Below are positions 7,731 to 18,493 of a stretch of 34,670 nucleotides of DNA, piece after piece. The DNA is from a virus (lineage: Duplodnaviria; Heunggongvirae; Uroviricota; Caudoviricetes). How positions within the stretch are numbered: the stretch's first letter is position 1; every line of letters starts with the position of its first letter. The stretch lies in the IMG/VR virus record IMGVR_UViG_2563366941_000005; one strand, given 5' to 3'. A program made the position numbers and the translations under genes. Under the pieces are notes generated by a model, which saw nothing but the letters and a program-made list of their open reading frames with translations, had not been told where the DNA came from and made no database searches.

Positions 7731-8405
7731 TTAGGCCTTTATTTTGTATCTTCTTGGTTTTCCTGAGAAAATTACTGTACCAATTATAGAGCAATTACCG
7801 TTAATCTTAATGTAAGGCTCAGGCCAGTTTGGGTTTAATGCTTTGAGATAACGCTGTGTTCCATCTTCTATCAATCGCTTGAAGGTGGTTTCGCCTGTAT
7901 CGTGCATCAATGCAATAACGTCGTCACCGTGGCAGGCAGGGACTTCGGGATCAACAAAAATCATGTCTCCCGGGCGGTACTCATCAATCATTGAATCACC
8001 AATCACCCGCAAGATATAAGTCATTTCGCCACAGGGTACAGGGCAGGGATAAGTTTCTGCTGTGCTCAAATCAACCTCAGAATAGCCAACTTCTTTCCAT
8101 GCTCCGGCCTGTACCCATGATATGACAGGGACTAACGTTATTTGTTTGTTAGTAATTGAAACATCAGGTTTTTTTGTGATGTTTGTTGTCTGGTGTTCTT
8201 GATCAAGCCATCCGACAGGCAGGTCGAAACATTTTTCGATGTGCCGTGCCATGCTGTCACCGATATTTTTAGTAGCACCATCTCCCATAAACCTGCTGGT
8301 CTGGGTTGGCTCGCGATCAATCATGGTGGCAAAGGAAGAATTCCCGCCAACACCATCTCTCAGTTTTCTGGCGTTAGACCGCCGGATGTCATGGACTGTT
8401 TTCAT
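7731..8405 (-). CDS. cI: CI-like prophage repressor (N-terminal HTH, C-terminal S24 LexA-like peptidase domain)
   Basis: 224-aa ORF; C-terminal VIGDSM...GD..FVD...K signature of S24 autopeptidase; divergent from the cro-like gene; no SD upstream, consistent with a leaderless transcript. Confidence 0.85.
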   Translation of the reverse strand: MKTVHDIRRSNARKLRDGVGGNSSFATMIDREPTQTSRFMGDGATKNIGDSMARHIEKCFDLPVGWLDQEHQTTNITKKPDVSITNKQITLVPVISWVQAGAWKEVGYSEVDLSTAETYPCPVPCGEMTYILRVIGDSMIDEYRPGDMIFVDPEVPACHGDDVIALMHDTGETTFKRLIEDGTQRYLKALNPNWPEPYIKINGNCSIIGTVIFSGKPRRYKIKA

Positions 8406-8727: not shown

Positions 8728-9297
8728 ATGAGGCTAACCGTGGGTAAGCATCACTGGAAAGTAGAAAAACAGCCTGAGTGGTACGTGAAAGCTGTCAGAA
8801 AAACTATCGCGGCGTTGCCGGGGGGTTACGCTGAAGCTGCTGAGTGGCTGGATGTAACAGAGAACGCATTATTCAACCGCCTTCGTGCAGATGGCGATCA
8901 GATTTTCCCGCTGGGATGGGCAATGGTTTTACAGCGTGCGGCTGGCACTCACTACATTGCGGATGCTGTCGCACAGTCTGCTGGTGGGGTGTTCGTATCG
9001 CTTCCTGAAATTGAGGCAGTAGAGAACGCCGATATAAACCAGCGCCTGCTGGAAGTCATTGAACAGATCGGCAGTTATTCCAGACAGATTCGTTCAGCAA
9101 TCGAAGACGGTGTAGTGGAACCGCATGAGAAGACAGCAATTAACGACGAACTGTATCTTTCAATTTCGAAGCTCCAGGAGCATGCAGCACTGGTCTACAA
9201 AATCTTCTGCGCTCCAGAAAAGAGTAACGCCCGCGAGTGTGCAGCTCCGGGCGTCGTGGCGTCGATTGCTTCTGGTTGTGGAGAAACTAACGCATGA
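8728..9297 (+). CDS. CII-like / YdaT-like regulatory protein
   Basis: 189-aa ORF directly after cro; N-terminal segment AEWLDVTENALFNRLRADGDQIFPLGWAMVL resembles the CII HTH region; start may instead be GTG at 8740. Confidence 0.55.
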   Translation: MRLTVGKHHWKVEKQPEWYVKAVRKTIAALPGGYAEAAEWLDVTENALFNRLRADGDQIFPLGWAMVLQRAAGTHYIADAVAQSAGGVFVSLPEIEAVENADINQRLLEVIEQIGSYSRQIRSAIEDGVVEPHEKTAINDELYLSISKLQEHAALVYKIFCAPEKSNARECAAPGVVASIASGCGETNA

Positions 9298-9622
9298 ATA
9301 GTTTAACGGCAAATAACCGTTTGTCGCAACAGCTGGTGGTCAGCGTCGCTGAACACCTGTTGTTACGGCATGAATGCAGATTACCAAATCACCTGGCTGT
9401 AAGTAACCACAGAGAACTTTACCTGACTGTGGGGGGCGAGTTGTGCAGGAACTTAACCGCTGGTTTCGTGACGGAAGAGGGCTTTATGTCCATGTTATTC
9501 GTTGGGAGCCAGAAACACAGCGCGTTATCTATCTTCGCAAAGACTACCCGCATGAGTGCTTTAGTCCTTTGTGGAAATTCAGGCGTGATTTTGTTGAGTG
9601 TGAAGGACCACCAGCATATTGA
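9294..9622 (+). pseudogene. Possible frameshifted small gene (frame 0 N-terminus joined to a protein-like frame +2 segment at a G6 tract)
   Basis: ATGA overlap with the preceding stop; G GGG GGC heptamer at 9431-9437; downstream frame encodes VVQELNRWFRDGRGLYVHVIRWEPETQRVIYLRKDYPHECFSPLWKFRRDFVECEGPPAY up to a stop at 9620-9622. Confidence 0.3.
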
Positions 9623-11966: not shown

Positions 11967-12619
11967 TGAGTAATAAATATTGCCAGGCGCTGGTGGAGCT
12001 GCGGAACAAACCAGCCCATGAACTGAAGGAAGTGGGCGATCAGTGGCGCACGCCGGACAACATTTTCTGGGGAATTAACACCCTGTTTGGCCCGTTTGTT
12101 CTGGATCTGTTCACTGATGGTGATAACGCCAAATGTGCCGCTTATTACACTGCGGAAGACAACGCGCTGGCGCATGACTGGTCTGAACGTCTTGCGGAGC
12201 TTAAAGGTGCTGCCTTTGGTAATCCCCCGTACAGCCGCGCCAGTCAGCATGAGGGGCAATACATCACCGGCATGCGTTACATCATGAAACATGCCAGTGC
12301 CATGCGTGATAAAGGCGGGCGCTATGTTTTCCTGATCAAAGCTGCCACCAGCGAAGTGTGGTGGCCGGAAGATGCAGATCATATTGCTTTTATTCGCGGG
12401 CGTATTGGTTTTGAACTGCCTGCCTGGTTTATCCCGAAAGACGAAAAGCAGGTGCCAACAGGTGCTTTCTTCGCTGGTGCTATTGCTGTTTTCGACAAGA
12501 CCTGGAAGGGACCGGCAATCAGCTACATAGGGCGCGATGAACTTGAGGCATGTGGTGAGGCGTTTCTGGCGCAGGTTCGCCAGCAGGCGGAAAAACTGGT
12601 CAGGGAGATGGCGGCATGA
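11966..12619 (+). CDS. Phage DNA N6-adenine methyltransferase (Dam-like)
   Basis: NPPY catalytic motif (FGNPPYS); start at ATG 11966 (TAATG overlap with upstream stop). Confidence 0.8.
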   Translation: MSNKYCQALVELRNKPAHELKEVGDQWRTPDNIFWGINTLFGPFVLDLFTDGDNAKCAAYYTAEDNALAHDWSERLAELKGAAFGNPPYSRASQHEGQYITGMRYIMKHASAMRDKGGRYVFLIKAATSEVWWPEDADHIAFIRGRIGFELPAWFIPKDEKQVPTGAFFAGAIAVFDKTWKGPAISYIGRDELEACGEAFLAQVRQQAEKLVREMAA

Positions 12620-12942
12620 CGACGTTAACTCAATGCCAGCAGCAGGTGCTGGATATGCTGATTTCTTATCAGAAAGAACGTGGCTTCCCGCCAACCAATC
12701 AGGAGGTGGCAACCATGCTGGGATACCGTTCGGTGAATGCAGCGGTGGAGCATCTTCGCGCACTGGAGAAAAAAGGCGTCATCACGATAAAGCGTGGCGT
12801 GGCCCGGGGGATAACGCTTCATACTGCGATGAAGGACGACGACAGCGAGGCGGTCGGGATTATCCGCGCACTGCTTGCCGGTGAGGAAAACGCAAGGCTG
12901 CGTGCAACCCACTGGTTACATGAGAGGGGCCTGAAAGTATGA
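12616..12942 (+). CDS. LexA-like protein with DNA-binding domain only (no S24 peptidase domain)
   Basis: 108 aa; alignable by eye with the E. coli LexA N-terminal winged helix (QQVLDML...GFPPTNQEVATMLGYRSVNAAVEHLRALEKKGVITI..ARGITL); ATGA-coupled to both neighbours. Confidence 0.7.
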   Translation: MTTLTQCQQQVLDMLISYQKERGFPPTNQEVATMLGYRSVNAAVEHLRALEKKGVITIKRGVARGITLHTAMKDDDSEAVGIIRALLAGEENARLRATHWLHERGLKV

Positions 12943-13334
12943 AGCTAATACTGCCTTTTCCGCCCAGCGTGAACACGTACTGGCGACACCCCAACAAAGG
13001 GGCGTTTGCTGGTAAGAGCCTGATAAGCGCGGCGGGGCGAAAATTCCAGAGCGCGGCGTGTGCAGCAATAGTTGAGCAGTTACGTCGTCTGCCGAAACCA
13101 ACGTCGGCACCTGCTTCAGTGGAGATCGTGTTGTTTCCTCCGGATAACCGGATCCGCGATCTGGACAACTATAACAAGGCGCTGTTTGACGCCCTGACCC
13201 ACGCGGGTGTGTGGGAAGACGACAGTCAGGTGAAAAGAATGCTGGTGGAGTGGGGACCGGTTATCCCGGAGGGGAAGGTCGAGATCACTATCAGTAAGTA
13301 CGAAAAAGCGAGTTGCAAATTAGCAACTCGGTAA
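12939..13334 (+). CDS. rusA: RusA-family Holliday junction resolvase
   Basis: 131 aa; PFPPSVNTYWR ... DLDNYNKALFDALT ... DDSQV matches the RusA signature. Confidence 0.85.
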   Translation: MKLILPFPPSVNTYWRHPNKGAFAGKSLISAAGRKFQSAACAAIVEQLRRLPKPTSAPASVEIVLFPPDNRIRDLDNYNKALFDALTHAGVWEDDSQVKRMLVEWGPVIPEGKVEITISKYEKASCKLATR

Positions 13335-13379
13335 CGGAATTGAGCAACACCCTAAATTTGGGTATTACCTCGTTAAAGA

Positions 13380-13399
13380 TACTGTATTTATGAACAGTG
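13380..13399. promoter_or_regulatory. SOS box (LexA operator) TACTGTATTTATGAACAGTG
   Basis: Perfect CTGT-N8-ACAG core with AT-rich spacer, about 100 bp upstream of the KilA-N gene and just downstream of candidate -35 TTGAGC (13340-13345) / -10 TATTAC (13363-13368). Confidence 0.7.
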
Positions 13400-13496
13400 T
13401 ATCCTTGATAACTATTAAAAATCGCAGTAAGTTCATCCTGCATCAACGAAAAGGGAGTGCAGTCCCGCTCGTGGATAAAAATTTGTGGAGAAACCA

Positions 13497-14312
13497 ATGA
13501 ATCAGTTGCTTGTAATTGATGGCGTTTCTGTGCGCCAGTACTTCGAATCTAACTACTGTCTTAACGACCTTCAGAAAGCTGCTCTTCTTGCCGCTGGTGA
13601 GAATCGCTCCTCCCGTTCGCTGGAAGTTCACGAGTTTATGCGTCGTCCTGAAACGAAGGCTCTTGTGGAATTATTGGAAGAAGAAACTACGGGAGATTCC
13701 CGTAGTATTCCTGTCATCACCATTCAGGGGCGCAATGGTGGGACGTATGTCTGTAAAGAGCTGGTCTATGCATATGCAATGTGGATCAGCCCGGCATTCA
13801 GCTTAAAAGTGATACGTACTTTTGATGCGCTTCATAATTCATCACCAGAAGAAACCACATCCGACAAAATTAAATCCGGGGTCATTCTGCTTGAATCAGC
13901 AGCAAAGACTCTAAATCTGTCAAACTCCTCGAAACTTGGTGCATACCAGAAATTATCAAAGGTAGCTGGTCTTCCTGAACTTATGCCGATCTATGCCATT
14001 GATGCACCTGCTGATGCGCCAGATGGTTCAAGCCGCCCTACGCTGTCGCTGAGTGCACTGCTGAAGCAGTATGGTATCCGCCTGACGGCTAATCAGGCAT
14101 ATCACCAGATGGCGAAGCTGGGGATCGTTGAACAACGCGAACGATACAGCCGTACCGCGATTAACAACATCAAAAAATTCTGGTCGCTGACCGCGAAAGG
14201 CTGCATGTTCGGCAAGAACATCACCAGTCCTGCAAATCCGCGCGAGACGCAGCCGCATTTCTTCGAATCCCGATTTCCTGAGCTGTTAAAGCTGCTCGAT
14301 ACCGTTCATTGA
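13497..14312 (+). CDS. KilA-N domain protein (antirepressor-like)
   Basis: N-terminal KilA-N-like segment (GGTYVCKELVYAYAMWISPAFSLKVIRTF); ATG at 13497 with GGAG SD. Confidence 0.7.
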   Translation: MNQLLVIDGVSVRQYFESNYCLNDLQKAALLAAGENRSSRSLEVHEFMRRPETKALVELLEEETTGDSRSIPVITIQGRNGGTYVCKELVYAYAMWISPAFSLKVIRTFDALHNSSPEETTSDKIKSGVILLESAAKTLNLSNSSKLGAYQKLSKVAGLPELMPIYAIDAPADAPDGSSRPTLSLSALLKQYGIRLTANQAYHQMAKLGIVEQRERYSRTAINNIKKFWSLTAKGCMFGKNITSPANPRETQPHFFESRFPELLKLLDTVH

Positions 14313-14313
14313 G

Positions 14314-15309
14314 GTGACTGTGAGAGCACTACTGACCCCTGAAATTGCCCCGCGTATGGGGATCGTATTGTTCAGGCCAGGTTCAGAGCTGATGCCCCTG
14401 TTTATGCAGGGGCGTGTCCTGCTGGAGCCTGAGCCGGAGCGTTATTCATCTTTCGCCAGTGGTGCCGTTCCGGCGGCATCACAACCGCTGGCGGATGATC
14501 CTGCCGTTCGGGCCGTGTTCCGCCATGAGGCAGTGATCCGTCGTGCTGGTGGCGTGGAATGTCTTGAAAGCTGGTTACTTCGTGAAAAAGGCTGCCAGTG
14601 GCCTCATTCCGGATGGCACAGCGAGAACATGACCACAATGCGACACGCTCCGGGTGCAATCCGTCTGTGCTGGCACTGCGATAACCAGCTGCGCGATCAG
14701 TTCACGGAACGGCTGGAATCAATGGCAACGGATAACTGTGCCCGCTGGGTGTTGTCTGTTGTGCGTCGGGATCTCGGTTTTGATGACAGTCACGTTGTGA
14801 CAATGCCGGAACTGTGCTGGTGGCTGATTCGTAATGACCTGGCGGATGCCTTACCGGAAAGTGCAGCCCGTAAGGCACTGAGATTACCGAAGCCTGTTGT
14901 GCCGTCTGTCACCCGGGAAAGTGACCTTGTGCCTTCGGTTCCTGCCACCAGCATCATCCAGGATAAAGCGAAAAAGGTGCTGGCGCTGAAAGTGGATCCG
15001 GAGTCGCCGGAGTCTTTTATGTTACGCCCCAAACGTCGCCGCTGGGTTAATGAAAAGTACACGCGCTGGGTTAAGACGCAGCCGTGTGCATGTTGTGGAA
15101 AGCCTGCTGATGATCCCCACCACCTGATAGGCCACGGTCAGGGGGGAATGGGTACAAAAGCGCATGACCTCTTCGTGCTGCCTTTGTGCAGAAAGCATCA
15201 CGACGAGCTGCATGCGGATACCGTGGCATTTGAAGAGAAGTATGGCTCCCAACTGGAGCTGATATTTCGTTTTATCGATCGTGCGCTGGCAATAGGCGTG
15301 CTGGCCTGA
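14314..15309 (+). CDS. DUF968-like phage protein with C-terminal HNH-like zinc-binding motif
   Basis: 331-aa ORF; C-terminal CACCGK...HHLIGHGQGG...CRKHHDELH; start codon uncertain (GTG 14314 or 14320). Confidence 0.6.
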   Translation: MTVRALLTPEIAPRMGIVLFRPGSELMPLFMQGRVLLEPEPERYSSFASGAVPAASQPLADDPAVRAVFRHEAVIRRAGGVECLESWLLREKGCQWPHSGWHSENMTTMRHAPGAIRLCWHCDNQLRDQFTERLESMATDNCARWVLSVVRRDLGFDDSHVVTMPELCWWLIRNDLADALPESAARKALRLPKPVVPSVTRESDLVPSVPATSIIQDKAKKVLALKVDPESPESFMLRPKRRRWVNEKYTRWVKTQPCACCGKPADDPHHLIGHGQGGMGTKAHDLFVLPLCRKHHDELHADTVAFEEKYGSQLELIFRFIDRALAIGVLA

Positions 15310-15326
15310 TTTTGTGGAGAAAGTTG

Positions 15327-15698
15327 ATGCGTGATATTCAAATGGTTCTTGAACGTTGGGGGGCATGGGTGGCAAATAATCACGAGGATGTGGAATGGTC
15401 ATCTGTTGCTGCAGGTTTTAAGGGATTAATTCCTTCGAAAGTAAAATCCCGCCCGCAATGTAGCGATGACGATGGCCTGATCATTAGCTCTGCGATGACA
15501 GTTCTTAAGAAAAAGGAACCGTATCAATACGAATTACTGGAAATGTATTATGTGTATGGGGTTACATTACGGGTGTTGGGGGTAAAACTGGGGATATCAC
15601 TTAATCAGGTTGTTATCAGACTGCAGAAAGCTGAAGGGTTTATTGACGGTTGTCTGGCAATGTTGGGGGTATCTTTAGAAATTGATTGTTACATATAG
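15327..15698 (+). CDS. Q: Late-gene antiterminator Q
   Basis: MRDIQMVLERWGAWV N-terminus typical of the phage antitermination Q family; GGAG SD; immediately upstream of the late region. Confidence 0.7.
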   Translation: MRDIQMVLERWGAWVANNHEDVEWSSVAAGFKGLIPSKVKSRPQCSDDDGLIISSAMTVLKKKEPYQYELLEMYYVYGVTLRVLGVKLGISLNQVVIRLQKAEGFIDGCLAMLGVSLEIDCYI

Positions 15699-15817: not shown

Positions 15818-16093
15818 GTGGCTTCTGTTTCTATCAGCTGTCCCTCCTGTTCAGCTACTGACGGGGTGGTGCGTAACGGCAAAAGCACCGCCGGACATCA
15901 GCGCTATCTCTGCTCTCACTGCCGTAAAACATGGCAACTGCAGTTCACTTACACCGCTTCTCAACCCGGTACGCACCAGAAAATCATTGATATGGCCATG
16001 AATGGCGTTGGATGCCGGGCAACAGCCCGCATTATGGGCGTTGGCCTCAACACGATTTTACGTCACTTAAAAAACTCAGGCCGCAGTCGGTAA
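15818..16093 (+). CDS. insA: IS1 InsA
   Basis: 91-aa [40 protein letters not shown]..., recognised as IS1 InsA. Confidence 0.95.
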
Positions 16094-16515
16094 CCTCGCG
16101 CATACAGCCGGGCAGTGACGTCATCGTCTGCGCGGAAATGGACGAACAGTGGGGCTATGTCGGGGCTAAATCGCGCCAGCGCTGGCTGTTTTACGCGTAT
16201 GACAGGCTCCGGAAGACGGTTGTTGCGCACGTATTCGGTGAACGCACTATGGCGACGCTGGGGCGTCTTATGAGCCTGCTGTCACCCTTTGACGTGGTGA
16301 TATGGATGACGGATGGCTGGCCGCTGTATGAATCCCGCCTGAAGGGAAAGCTGCACGTAATCAGCAAGCGATATACGCAGCGAATTGAGCGGCATAACCT
16401 GAATCTGAGGCAGCACCTGGCACGGCTGGGACGGAAGTCGCTGTCGTTCTCAAAATCGGTGGAGCTGCATGACAAAGTCATCGGGCATTATCTGAACATA
16501 AAACACTATCAATAA
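16012..16515 (+). CDS. insB: IS1 InsB reading frame (transposase made as InsAB-prime by -1 frameshift)
   Basis: 167-aa frame; A6C slippery motif TTAAAAAACTC at about 16066-16076 in the insA/insB overlap. Confidence 0.9.
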
Positions 16516-17779: not shown

Positions 17780-18493
17780 ATGGCTGTTGTCTGTTCAGTT
17801 ATCATGGTTTGCTCCCCAATTAATATTTTTCTTGAAAAGGATACGTTGTCACTTAAGCCAGGCTCAGTTGTTCTGGCCACCAAATGCATCAGGGAGCTTT
17901 TCCTTATGCATTATGGCAAAGTTAAAATTGTCGATATAAGCGAATCCGTCGTAAGTCAATATCTGGAAAGTCAGCATAAGCTGACGAGGACTCGTCTGAC
18001 TGACATTCCGCTTTACCTGTTGCTGGAACCCAACAATCCTGCGTTGGCTGCGGCTTTAATTACCAGCCAGGGATTTTCCGGAGAGGCCACGGATATGTTT
18101 CTTATGATGGCCTGCCTGTCTCTGTTTGAAACAGATGAACGGATGTCATTGTTTTTAAGTGGATGTTTATCCAGCATAAGTGCCAAAGTCAGGGCGATAA
18201 TTCAGACAGATATATCAGCAAGCTGGACGCTTGGTGCGATTGCTCTACAGTTGCATATGAGTGAGAGTTTGTTAAAGACAAAACTGAAAAATGAAGGGGG
18301 CATGTTCAGTCGCTTGTTGCTGGAAGAGCGGATGCGTGTTGCTGTAAATATGTTATGTTCCCGGCATGGATATGGACAGGCTATAGCAGAAAAATGCGGT
18401 TATTCAAGCAGGTCCTACTTTATTTCTGTATTTCACCGCTATTATGGCTTCCCGCCAGACAGATATGTATCCAGGCAAGGGCTTGATTATTGA
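17780..18493 (+). CDS. AraC-family transcriptional regulator
   Basis: C-terminal AraC-type HTH (WTLGAIALQLHMSESLLKTKLK ... GYSSRSYFISVFHRYYGFPP); low GC; start codon uncertain. Confidence 0.8.
   Translation: MAVVCSVIMVCSPINIFLEKDTLSLKPGSVVLATKCIRELFLMHYGKVKIVDISESVVSQYLESQHKLTRTRLTDIPLYLLLEPNNPALAAALITSQGFSGEATDMFLMMACLSLFETDERMSLFLSGCLSSISAKVRAIIQTDISASWTLGAIALQLHMSESLLKTKLKNEGGMFSRLLLEERMRVAVNMLCSRHGYGQAIAEKCGYSSRSYFISVFHRYYGFPPDRYVSRQGLDY

Follow-up and report, generated by a model that had tools for sequence, protein, structure and literature searches.

An optional cassette of SOS box, promoter, and leader hairpin upstream of a KilA-N gene in an SfIV-like lambdoid prophage

INTRODUCTION

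LexA-controlled prophage genes set when and how prophages answer DNA damage and antibiotics. Here, we describe a candidate locus of this kind in IMGVR_UViG_2563366941_000005, a 34,670-nucleotide stretch of Caudoviricetes DNA (the whole of which is called the window below), where a near-consensus SOS box precedes kilA-N, a gene for a KilA-N/APSES-type DNA-binding protein. The prophage is lambdoid and of the SfIV type, and the box belongs to a self-contained cassette (operator, sigma-70 promoter, 5' hairpin, and ribosome-binding site) between rusA and kilA-N in its nin region. We consider it probable, at roughly 60%, that positions 13380-13499 act as a LexA-repressed, DNA-damage-inducible internal promoter, which would give CI-independent expression of the KilA-N DNA-binding protein and probably of the DUF968/HNH protein encoded after it.

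Several described systems resemble this arrangement. The dinI-antirepressor (gfoA/gftA)-irsA operon of the Gifsy-1, -2, and -3 prophages (Lemire et al. 2011, PMC3121763) likewise has a LexA box and a promoter of its own in the lambdoid early-right region, and its SOS timing is independent of the repressor. However, the Gifsy products are small antirepressors and a DinI homolog, whereas the gene studied here encodes a 271-amino-acid (aa) KilA-N/APSES protein without similarity to them. The Gifsy repressors are not cleaved, whereas the CI of this prophage is of the S24 type, and terminator-like palindromes lie ahead of the Gifsy box, whereas no plus-strand terminator precedes the box here. In two systems cited in PMC3121763, coliphage 186 with Tum and N15 with AntC, a host LexA operator likewise controls a regulatory gene of the phage, which is not expressed in the lysogen. 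These two proteins share neither sequence nor domain kinship with the KilA-N protein, and the antirepressor is there the only route to induction. The same is said of Salmonella phage SPC32H, whose LexA-controlled antirepressor Ant is reportedly the sole induction route and has no kinship to the KilA-N protein either.

A different parallel comes from GIL01, where gp6 acts with host LexA and gp7 (Fornelos et al. 2018, PMC6182141). Both loci have a LexA homolog reduced to the DNA-binding domain (44% identity there, 43% here) and a later-gene promoter with LexA-type operators, but GIL01 is a Gram-positive tectivirus without CI. Its gp6 site, GaCACAC GTGTGaC, overlaps the -35 element, with its center at -43.5, and is unlike the LexA box, whereas we found a consensus host SOS box at about -50, to which binding of the phage protein is putative.

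Regarding the protein itself, AriS-like regulators (Azulay et al. 2022, PMC9043618) are similar in being encoded in the early-lytic module and in joining an exchangeable N-terminal DNA-binding domain to a conserved C-terminal one; although annotated "antirepressor," they acted, when tested, in temporal regulation and in modulating the SOS response (PMC9043618). Their C-terminal domain is ANT/KilAC (PF03374) and their N termini are AntA/B, Bro-N, or pRha, whereas here the N terminus is KilA-N and the C-terminal half matches no known family; LexA control has not been reported for AriS-like regulators. The Roi-type nin-region proteins of HK022 and 933W have this two-domain AriS-like build. P1 KilA, reportedly the founder of the KilA-N domain, is said to carry an N-terminal KilA-N/APSES fold and to be encoded by an early lytic operon gene. 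P1 kilA is under the control of C1, not LexA, and its C-terminal KilAC/ANT domain is absent from the protein described here. The regulatory principle is already known from Gifsy, 186, N15, and GIL01; what is new is its attachment to an uncharacterized protein family and a leader hairpin that has not been described.

RESULTS AND DISCUSSION

A strong SOS box between rusA and kilA-N

The features that make up the locus are as follows.

12939-13334, plus strand: RusA Holliday-junction resolvase (PF05866), with its 3' end, from ~13305, in the mosaic segment
13305-13990, plus strand: allele-specific mosaic segment comprising the rusA 3' end, a 162-bp spacer (box, promoter, hairpin), and the N-terminal KilA-N domain; limits approximate, from alignments
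13340-13345 and 13363-13368, plus strand: promoter P1 of the original prediction, TTGAGC and TATTAC with a 17-bp spacer; weak and allele specific
13380-13399: LexA operator (SOS box) TACTGTATTTATGAACAGTG, core CTGT-N8-ACAG at 13382-13397, from sequence match and heterology index (HI)
13405-13410 and 13428-13433, plus strand: promoter P2, sigma-70 type, -35 TTGATA and -10 TAAGTT with a 17-bp spacer, from the layout conserved in relatives
13442-13476, plus strand: 5'-leader hairpin AUC.ACGA...GGGA[GUGCAG]UCCC..UCGU.GAU, loop at 13457-13462, from minimum free energy folding and covariation
13487-13490 and 13497-13499, plus strand: Shine-Dalgarno GGAG and ATG; RefSeq annotates the same start, equivalent to 13497, for the identical O104:H4 locus
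13497-14312, plus strand: KilA-N/APSES-type DNA-binding protein, 271 aa (PF04383, E value of 1.3e-15)

The original prediction, made from the sequence alone, had the sequence and coordinates of the box exactly right, and the core is intact. TACTGTATTTATGAACAGTG agrees with TACTGTATATATATACAGTA at 16 of 20 positions, and the 34.7-kb window has two copies of CTGT-N8-ACAG, where 0.43 would be expected. The box also precedes the gene as had been claimed, although not directly, since 97 nt lie between it and the kilA-N ATG.

To score the site, we replaced the original heterology matrix by one of our own, built from 16 MG1655 SOS boxes, each confirmed at the expected promoter in the genome sequence. 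HI was the Berg-von Hippel index from these 16 sites, computed in an asymmetric and a symmetrized version, the latter agreeing with the published HI of 13 SOS genes to ~0.8 (PMC11228462, Table 1). The box had an HI of 5.05 (asymmetric) or 6.11 (symmetrized), a low value in the range of strong sites and at the level of recA, sulA, uvrA, and yebG (6.2 to 6.3 for the last two), so the check by LexA matrix that had been proposed came out in favor of the site. For comparison, classical SOS genes span 1.8 to 13 (PMC11228462, Table 1), and the leave-one-out values of the 16 true sites ran from 1.0 to 10.8, half of them being beaten by the box. It was by a wide margin the top-ranked LexA-like site of the whole window (runner-up, 8.7 to 9.7), and 20 Mb of Markov-1 sequence with the composition of the window held no 20-mer with an HI of ≤6.11. 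This site quality makes binding of LexA to the box in vitro very likely.

The runner-up, AAGTGGATGTTTATCCAGCA at 18157-18176 (HI of 8.7 to 9.7, ~0.02 such sites expected per window), lies inside an AraC-family open reading frame (ORF) at 17780-18493. The second copy of the core, CTGTAAGTAACCACAG (9397-9412), is followed by a hairpin with a GTGCAG loop (9438-9454) upstream of the Rha/Ash gene and was considered as a second cassette. We rejected it as a probable chance occurrence because its HI of 20.3 is not LexA-like, the two leaders cannot be aligned, and hairpins this small abound, with 16 of them in the window.

Promoters and box geometry

According to the original prediction, the box lay just downstream of the promoter TTGAGC/TATTAC, in the classic position for LexA repression. 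Both hexamers of this P1 are present, but the -10 element has a C at the near-invariant -7 (position 6 of the hexamer), P1 was not returned by the promoter scan, and no counterpart was found in relatives, in which the rusA coding sequence extends to the box. As the same stretch is rusA coding DNA there, P1 is at best a weak allele-specific promoter, relative to which the box would occupy about +6 to +25.

The conserved promoter is instead found downstream. Relatives from Enterobacter, Superficieibacter, Atlantibacter, Leclercia, Phytobacter, and Kluyvera, together with the viral contig L137, share a fixed layout of box, 5 nt, -35 (TTGAAA, TTGATA, or TTGCTA), 17 nt, and -10 (TAAGGT, TAATGT, or TAAGTT), with hexamers picked by eye. 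In the window, 5 nt likewise separate the end of the box from the -35 of P2, whose predicted start is at ~13440. The box thus sits just upstream of the -35, with its center at about -50, which with respect to P2 is not the classic position. The motif GTGGAG, at the Shine-Dalgarno sequence, is common to all the leaders compared. No plus-strand terminators were found between 12500 and 14500, so that neither rusA and kilA-N nor kilA-N and the DUF968 gene are separated by one.

On the minus strand, the 3' end of rusA, which is specific to the allele, contains a terminator-like hairpin at 13309-13330, followed by CTTTTTCG. This hairpin (13330-13309 in its own direction) raised the idea of a divergent LexA-controlled small RNA, which was dropped since neither the scan nor reading of the sequence gave a minus-strand promoter.

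A conserved hairpin in the leader

Every long leader has, between the promoter and the Shine-Dalgarno sequence, a hairpin with an invariant UGCAG apical loop. Besides the window, the hairpin loci were L017-L068, L137, L139, L176, and L178, and folds of single sequences, locus by locus, gave the hairpin in 13 genera, including Gilliamella. Among eight close relatives, 95% of the alignment cells are paired and two pairs are compensatory. When 12 distinct versions of the four loop-closing pairs were compared, 97.9% of cells were paired, all four pairs showed double changes, and none of 500 shuffles matched this. As the 14-mers of this test were excised manually with the conserved loop as a guide, these figures may carry some ascertainment bias. 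An Rfam search of 12500-14500 (E value of ≤10) returned no family at the leader hairpin.

Only a few nucleotides separate the beginning of the hairpin from the predicted start, which gives independent support to the assignment of P2. It could stabilize the 5' end of the mRNA, and the invariance of the loop suggests that a specific factor reads UGCAG. On inspection, neither its loop nor its flanks suited a boxB/nut site, a minus-strand terminator, or an element sequestering the Shine-Dalgarno sequence, and these identities were rejected. The motif is present once more, as (G)UGCA(A/U), 11 to 20 nt upstream, near the predicted start.

A mosaic allele and its relatives in other genera

The 1.8-kb region around the cassette is 100% identical in many E. 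coli genomes, O104:H4 included, and 98.5 to 99% identical in SfIV and in Escherichia phage PhiR49_1. This allele was present in 187 of 5,426 complete E. coli genomes (~3%), and its carriers include E. coli O104:H4, the extraintestinal pathogenic strain S88 (ExPEC S88), O111:H8, and Shigella phage SfIV. A scan of viral contigs yielded mostly identical copies and added little diversity; the box was invariant in all of the 40+ copies of the allele. In contrast, SfII, Stx2a_1447, and mEp460, with flanks >90% identical, have a gap of only 19 bp between rusA and kilA-N and no box, and their KilA-N protein has another N-terminal domain, while its C-terminal 110 residues are nearly identical to those encoded in the window. 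Box, promoter, and hairpin therefore form an optional, mobile cassette. Because the copies of these three phages follow rusA at 19 bp without box or promoter, kilA-N is to be seen as an ordinary nin-region gene.

We also scanned other genera, with one genome per species, and obtained 79 loci, among which the full-length homologs split into 17 with a short gap (≤42 bp after the upstream gene) and 26 with a long leader. A LexA-like site (HI of ≤14) lay within 300 nt upstream in 14 of the 26 long-leader loci from other genera, the chance expectation being ~1 to 2% per locus, and in none of the 17 short-gap loci, where the best HI was 17.3. In Pantoea, Rosenbergiella, and Erwinia, the LexA-like box overlaps, as judged by eye, the -35 or -10 of the leader promoter, which is the classical arrangement, and no phage gene for a LexA DNA-binding domain (DBD) occurs within 4 kb. 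A box over the promoter in the absence of that gene points to host LexA as the ligand. Furthermore, a permissive search, requiring only that a TGCAG hairpin follow a LexA-like box, gave 24 matches in 1.3 Mb, of which ~19 lay directly upstream of KilA-N genes, so that the cassette and the gene family belong together. The outcome is a widespread box-promoter-hairpin cassette at KilA-N genes across Enterobacterales and Orbales.

Near-perfect SOS boxes were also noticed in two prophages, of Shigella flexneri and Citrobacter (L029 and L026), whose kilA-N has no box. They lie in a minus-strand CI-type gene, between the parts encoding the helix-turn-helix and S24 domains, at 371-390 of L029 (TACTGTTTTTATATACAGTA, HI of 1.9) and 270-289 of L026 (HI of 4.4).

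The KilA-N protein

The downstream gene is indeed a KilA-N gene, as the original prediction had it, and the PF04383 match belongs to a protein built from a variable N-terminal domain (aa 10-114) and a highly conserved C-terminal half. The N-terminal KilA-N/APSES domain, recognized by profile and by fold, is the sole recognizable part. Residues 115-271 had no Pfam match even at an E value of ≤10, ANT/KilAC included, and the C-terminal half had no relatives by sequence in NCBIfam or the PDB. The regions of known antirepressors that were looked for (ANT/KilAC, Bro-N, AntA/B, Tum/DinI, and GfoA-like) were not detected in the protein, and the PHROG label of the family is "transcriptional regulator," not anti-repressor. 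We predict a sequence-specific DNA-binding protein whose build recalls the modular temporal regulators of phages. The identical (100%) allele of box and kilA-N was found together with two types of CI that are only 24% identical to one another, which argues against a dedicated antirepressor-repressor pair. Literature searches returned no direct study of this KilA-N family or of its control by LexA, nor any publication on the locus.

Some database ORFs (P0095, P0107, P0066, and related ones) fuse LexA_DNA_bind or RusA to the conserved C-terminal part of the KilA-N protein and are probably deletion or frameshift products of this row of genes.

A truncated LexA gene upstream of rusA

One further gene bears on the box.

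12616-12942, plus strand: LexA DNA-binding-domain-only protein, 108 aa, without S24 (PF01726 at residues 1-65, E value of 2.9e-19; phrog_362)

The LexA-DBD-only gene reported by the original prediction is thus borne out, PF01726 being its only domain. The match to TIGR00498 covers positions 1-91 only and is under the cutoff, and by BLASTP the protein is 43% identical to LexA residues 1-90. It retains the recognition-helix residues S39, N41, A42, and E45 of LexA, which we take, from the LexA-DNA crystal structure, to contact the CTGT bases. Literature searches found no direct study of the lambdoid LexA-DBD protein and no report of its function. This family of lambdoid phage proteins, each a truncated LexA, is a second outcome of this work.

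The prediction also joined this gene and the box into one candidate regulatory module. However, the gene accompanies alleles with and without a box alike and is lacking in the cassettes of several genera, so it is no obligatory partner of the box, although a link between the two is possible. A co-evolution of residue 45 with the left half-site was kept as a lead only: lineages with E or T have C (3/3) and those with D or A have G (6/6), but this concerns one half-site in related lineages. Two other traits of the 108-aa protein were seen. Its LLAGE aligns with the autocleavage site VAAGE of LexA, though the protease domain is absent, and its C-terminal tail of ~35 residues (..RALLAGEENARLRATHWLHERG..) is conserved among the phage homologs.

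What the cassette may do

Our favored explanation is a LexA-repressed promoter. In a lysogen, host LexA would most likely occupy the operator that abuts the -35 of P2, just downstream of the weak P1, and transcription would be low. Upon DNA damage, LexA would be cleaved and the promoter would fire, and the KilA-N protein, probably with the adjacent DUF968/HNH protein, would be made on SOS timing, independent of both CI cleavage and N-dependent read-through from pR. In the lytic cycle, transcription from pR would reach these genes as well, as in the relatives without a cassette. A precedent exists in the Gifsy prophages, in which LexA-controlled operons lie ~1.3 kb downstream of the replication genes (PMC3121763). 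If the promoter is controlled in this manner, lysogens would make a phage DNA-binding regulator, and perhaps the HNH protein, in any SOS response, even one too weak to cleave CI, with possible effects on host physiology, co-resident prophages, or the timing of late genes.

Several points weigh against this explanation. A box center near -50 is an untypical place for repression. In Salmonella, genes whose box is distant from the start codon tend to show expression patterns that do not depend on LexA (PMC8072944), the distance here being the 97 nt given above. The closest relatives with the same layout have a degenerate left half-site (GTGG or GTGT, HI of 9 to 14) or, in L139 and L176, no box; strong LexA binding is thus no conserved requirement in this lineage, and the near-consensus box is a feature of the allele. 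As the copies with the perfect box are nearly identical, they provide no evidence of purifying selection on it, and literature searches gave no expression, chromatin immunoprecipitation, electrophoretic mobility shift, or start-site data for this locus.

The original prediction went further, called the gene antirepressor-like, and suggested that the prophage may have two independent routes from SOS to induction. In such a model, the LexA-controlled protein would inactivate its own CI, or co-resident repressors, as a second SOS route independent of cleavage, like those of Gifsy prophages, 186, N15, and SPC32H. A strong LexA box ahead of the gene would suit such a role, and some proteins annotated as antirepressors do contain KilA-N domains. 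The neighborhood has a parallel in Qin, where rem presumably lies, on the K-12 map, just upstream of ydfU, a DUF968 gene. Its product Rem is an antirepressor of DicA (PMC10448788), and the place of kilA-N downstream of the replication genes is also like that of the Gifsy dinI-antirepressor operon (PMC3121763). But no domain associated with antirepressors accompanies the N-terminal KilA-N/APSES fold, the C-terminal half being devoid of Pfam matches, and the PHROG label points elsewhere; many phages have a kilA-N that is coupled to rusA and has no box, and the identical allele goes with heteroimmune CIs. Moreover, the CI here is of the cleavable S24 type, whereas the characterized LexA-controlled antirepressors serve non-cleavable repressors (PMC3121763). 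An antirepressor role is possible, but as an account of this locus we regard it as improbable; a KilA-N domain alone does not make an antirepressor, which corrects a reflex of annotation. We give still less credence to the box being irrelevant, a remnant or an accident within an imported mosaic segment, with kilA-N expressed only by read-through from pR in lytic growth. The gene works without a box in its box-less relatives, L139 and L176 retain leader and hairpin but no box, and the position relative to P2 is atypical; however, not one site so near the consensus turned up in the 20 Mb of random sequence, this place is enriched in LexA-like boxes across genera, and the retained promoter elements would be pointless without independent transcription.

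A rival that deserves more weight than these two, though we still hold it to be unlikely, makes the phage truncated LexA the main ligand. Produced from pR after cleavage of CI, it would either activate P2 in the manner of GIL01 gp6 or, as an uncleavable mimic, re-repress P2 and host SOS genes, with host LexA competing for the box in the lysogen. The retained recognition-helix residues are in line with this, as is the activator-like geometry, with the box upstream of the -35, a poor -10 in P2, and a -35 that is also poor in relatives. In GIL01, gp6 activates the late promoter from a palindrome at -43.5 and host LexA represses it (PMC6182141). In addition, almost all the loci with the box upstream of the -35 have the LexA-DBD gene, and the lineages with the box over the promoter are without it. 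Nevertheless, the gene is equally common beside box-less kilA-N alleles, L017 keeps the operator layout without it, a center near -50 agrees with the spacing of neither activator class (I or II), and dimerization of the 108-aa protein is only putative. The weak co-variation of the E45-aligned residue with the left half-site (CTGT versus GTGG/GTGT) concerns one half-site in a handful of related lineages and is unconvincing. Both proteins could also share the site: host LexA and the uncleavable phage LexA-DBD on one box upstream of a weak promoter, with a transcript led by the new UGCAG hairpin that is read by a factor, would make a CI-independent timing circuit, LexA-repressed in the lysogen and activated or re-repressed by the mimic after induction, that controls KilA-N and possibly feeds Q, a lambdoid, Gram-negative counterpart of GIL01 gp6/LexA with a new cis-regulatory RNA element. 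We regard this combined scheme as doubtful and offer it tentatively.

Gene neighborhood and prophage type

Along the window, the genes run in the order CI (on the minus strand), Cro-like, CII/YmfL-like, Rha/Ash, replication protein, PerC, Dam, LexA-DBD, RusA, box, KilA-N, DUF968/HNH, Q, and IS1. The neighbors referred to above are the following.

7731-8405, minus strand: CI-type repressor with Peptidase_S24 (PF00717), with QAG/A, GDSM, and KRL motifs
14314-15309, plus strand: DUF968/HNH-like protein (PF06147, phrog_96), after a 1-nt gap from kilA-N
15312-15698, plus strand: Q antiterminator (PF06530)

The CI with an S24 autocleavage domain noted by the original prediction was found as described; its QAG/A, GDSM, and KRL motifs indicate that it is cleavable, and on these motifs it is the presumed canonical SOS route to induction. 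SfIV and PhiR49_1 have the same CI (100% identity), and this match, together with IS1 following Q as in SfIV, makes the prophage SfIV-like. The DUF968/HNH gene is probably co-transcribed with kilA-N.

The Rha/Ash gene, with a pRha domain and matches to anti-repressor PHROGs, is the better candidate for an antirepressor in the window. Its ORF of 381 aa has its first ~190 nt (9294-9486) outside the coverage of PHROG and Pfam profiles, and the true start is probably the ATG at 9486.

Toward the right end of this region, terminator-like sites cluster on the plus strand at 14738-15308 (seven against 1.4 expected), in the 3' portion of the DUF968 gene adjoining Q. These sites, some of which are at 15243-15308, may be nin-type terminators limiting unmodified transcripts. 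IS1 (InsA and InsB, 15818-16515) comes right after Q, as in SfIV, whereas two genes on the minus strand occupy this place in the O104:H4 prophage, which is identical otherwise. Finally, in four genera, gatctatgaaaaa followed by a strong SOS box (HI of 5.9 to 9.7) was found 2.5 to 3.9 kb downstream of kilA-N (L021:7156, L036:6951, L056:6460, and L068:7890), a context that may represent another LexA-controlled prophage locus near the Q/lysis region.

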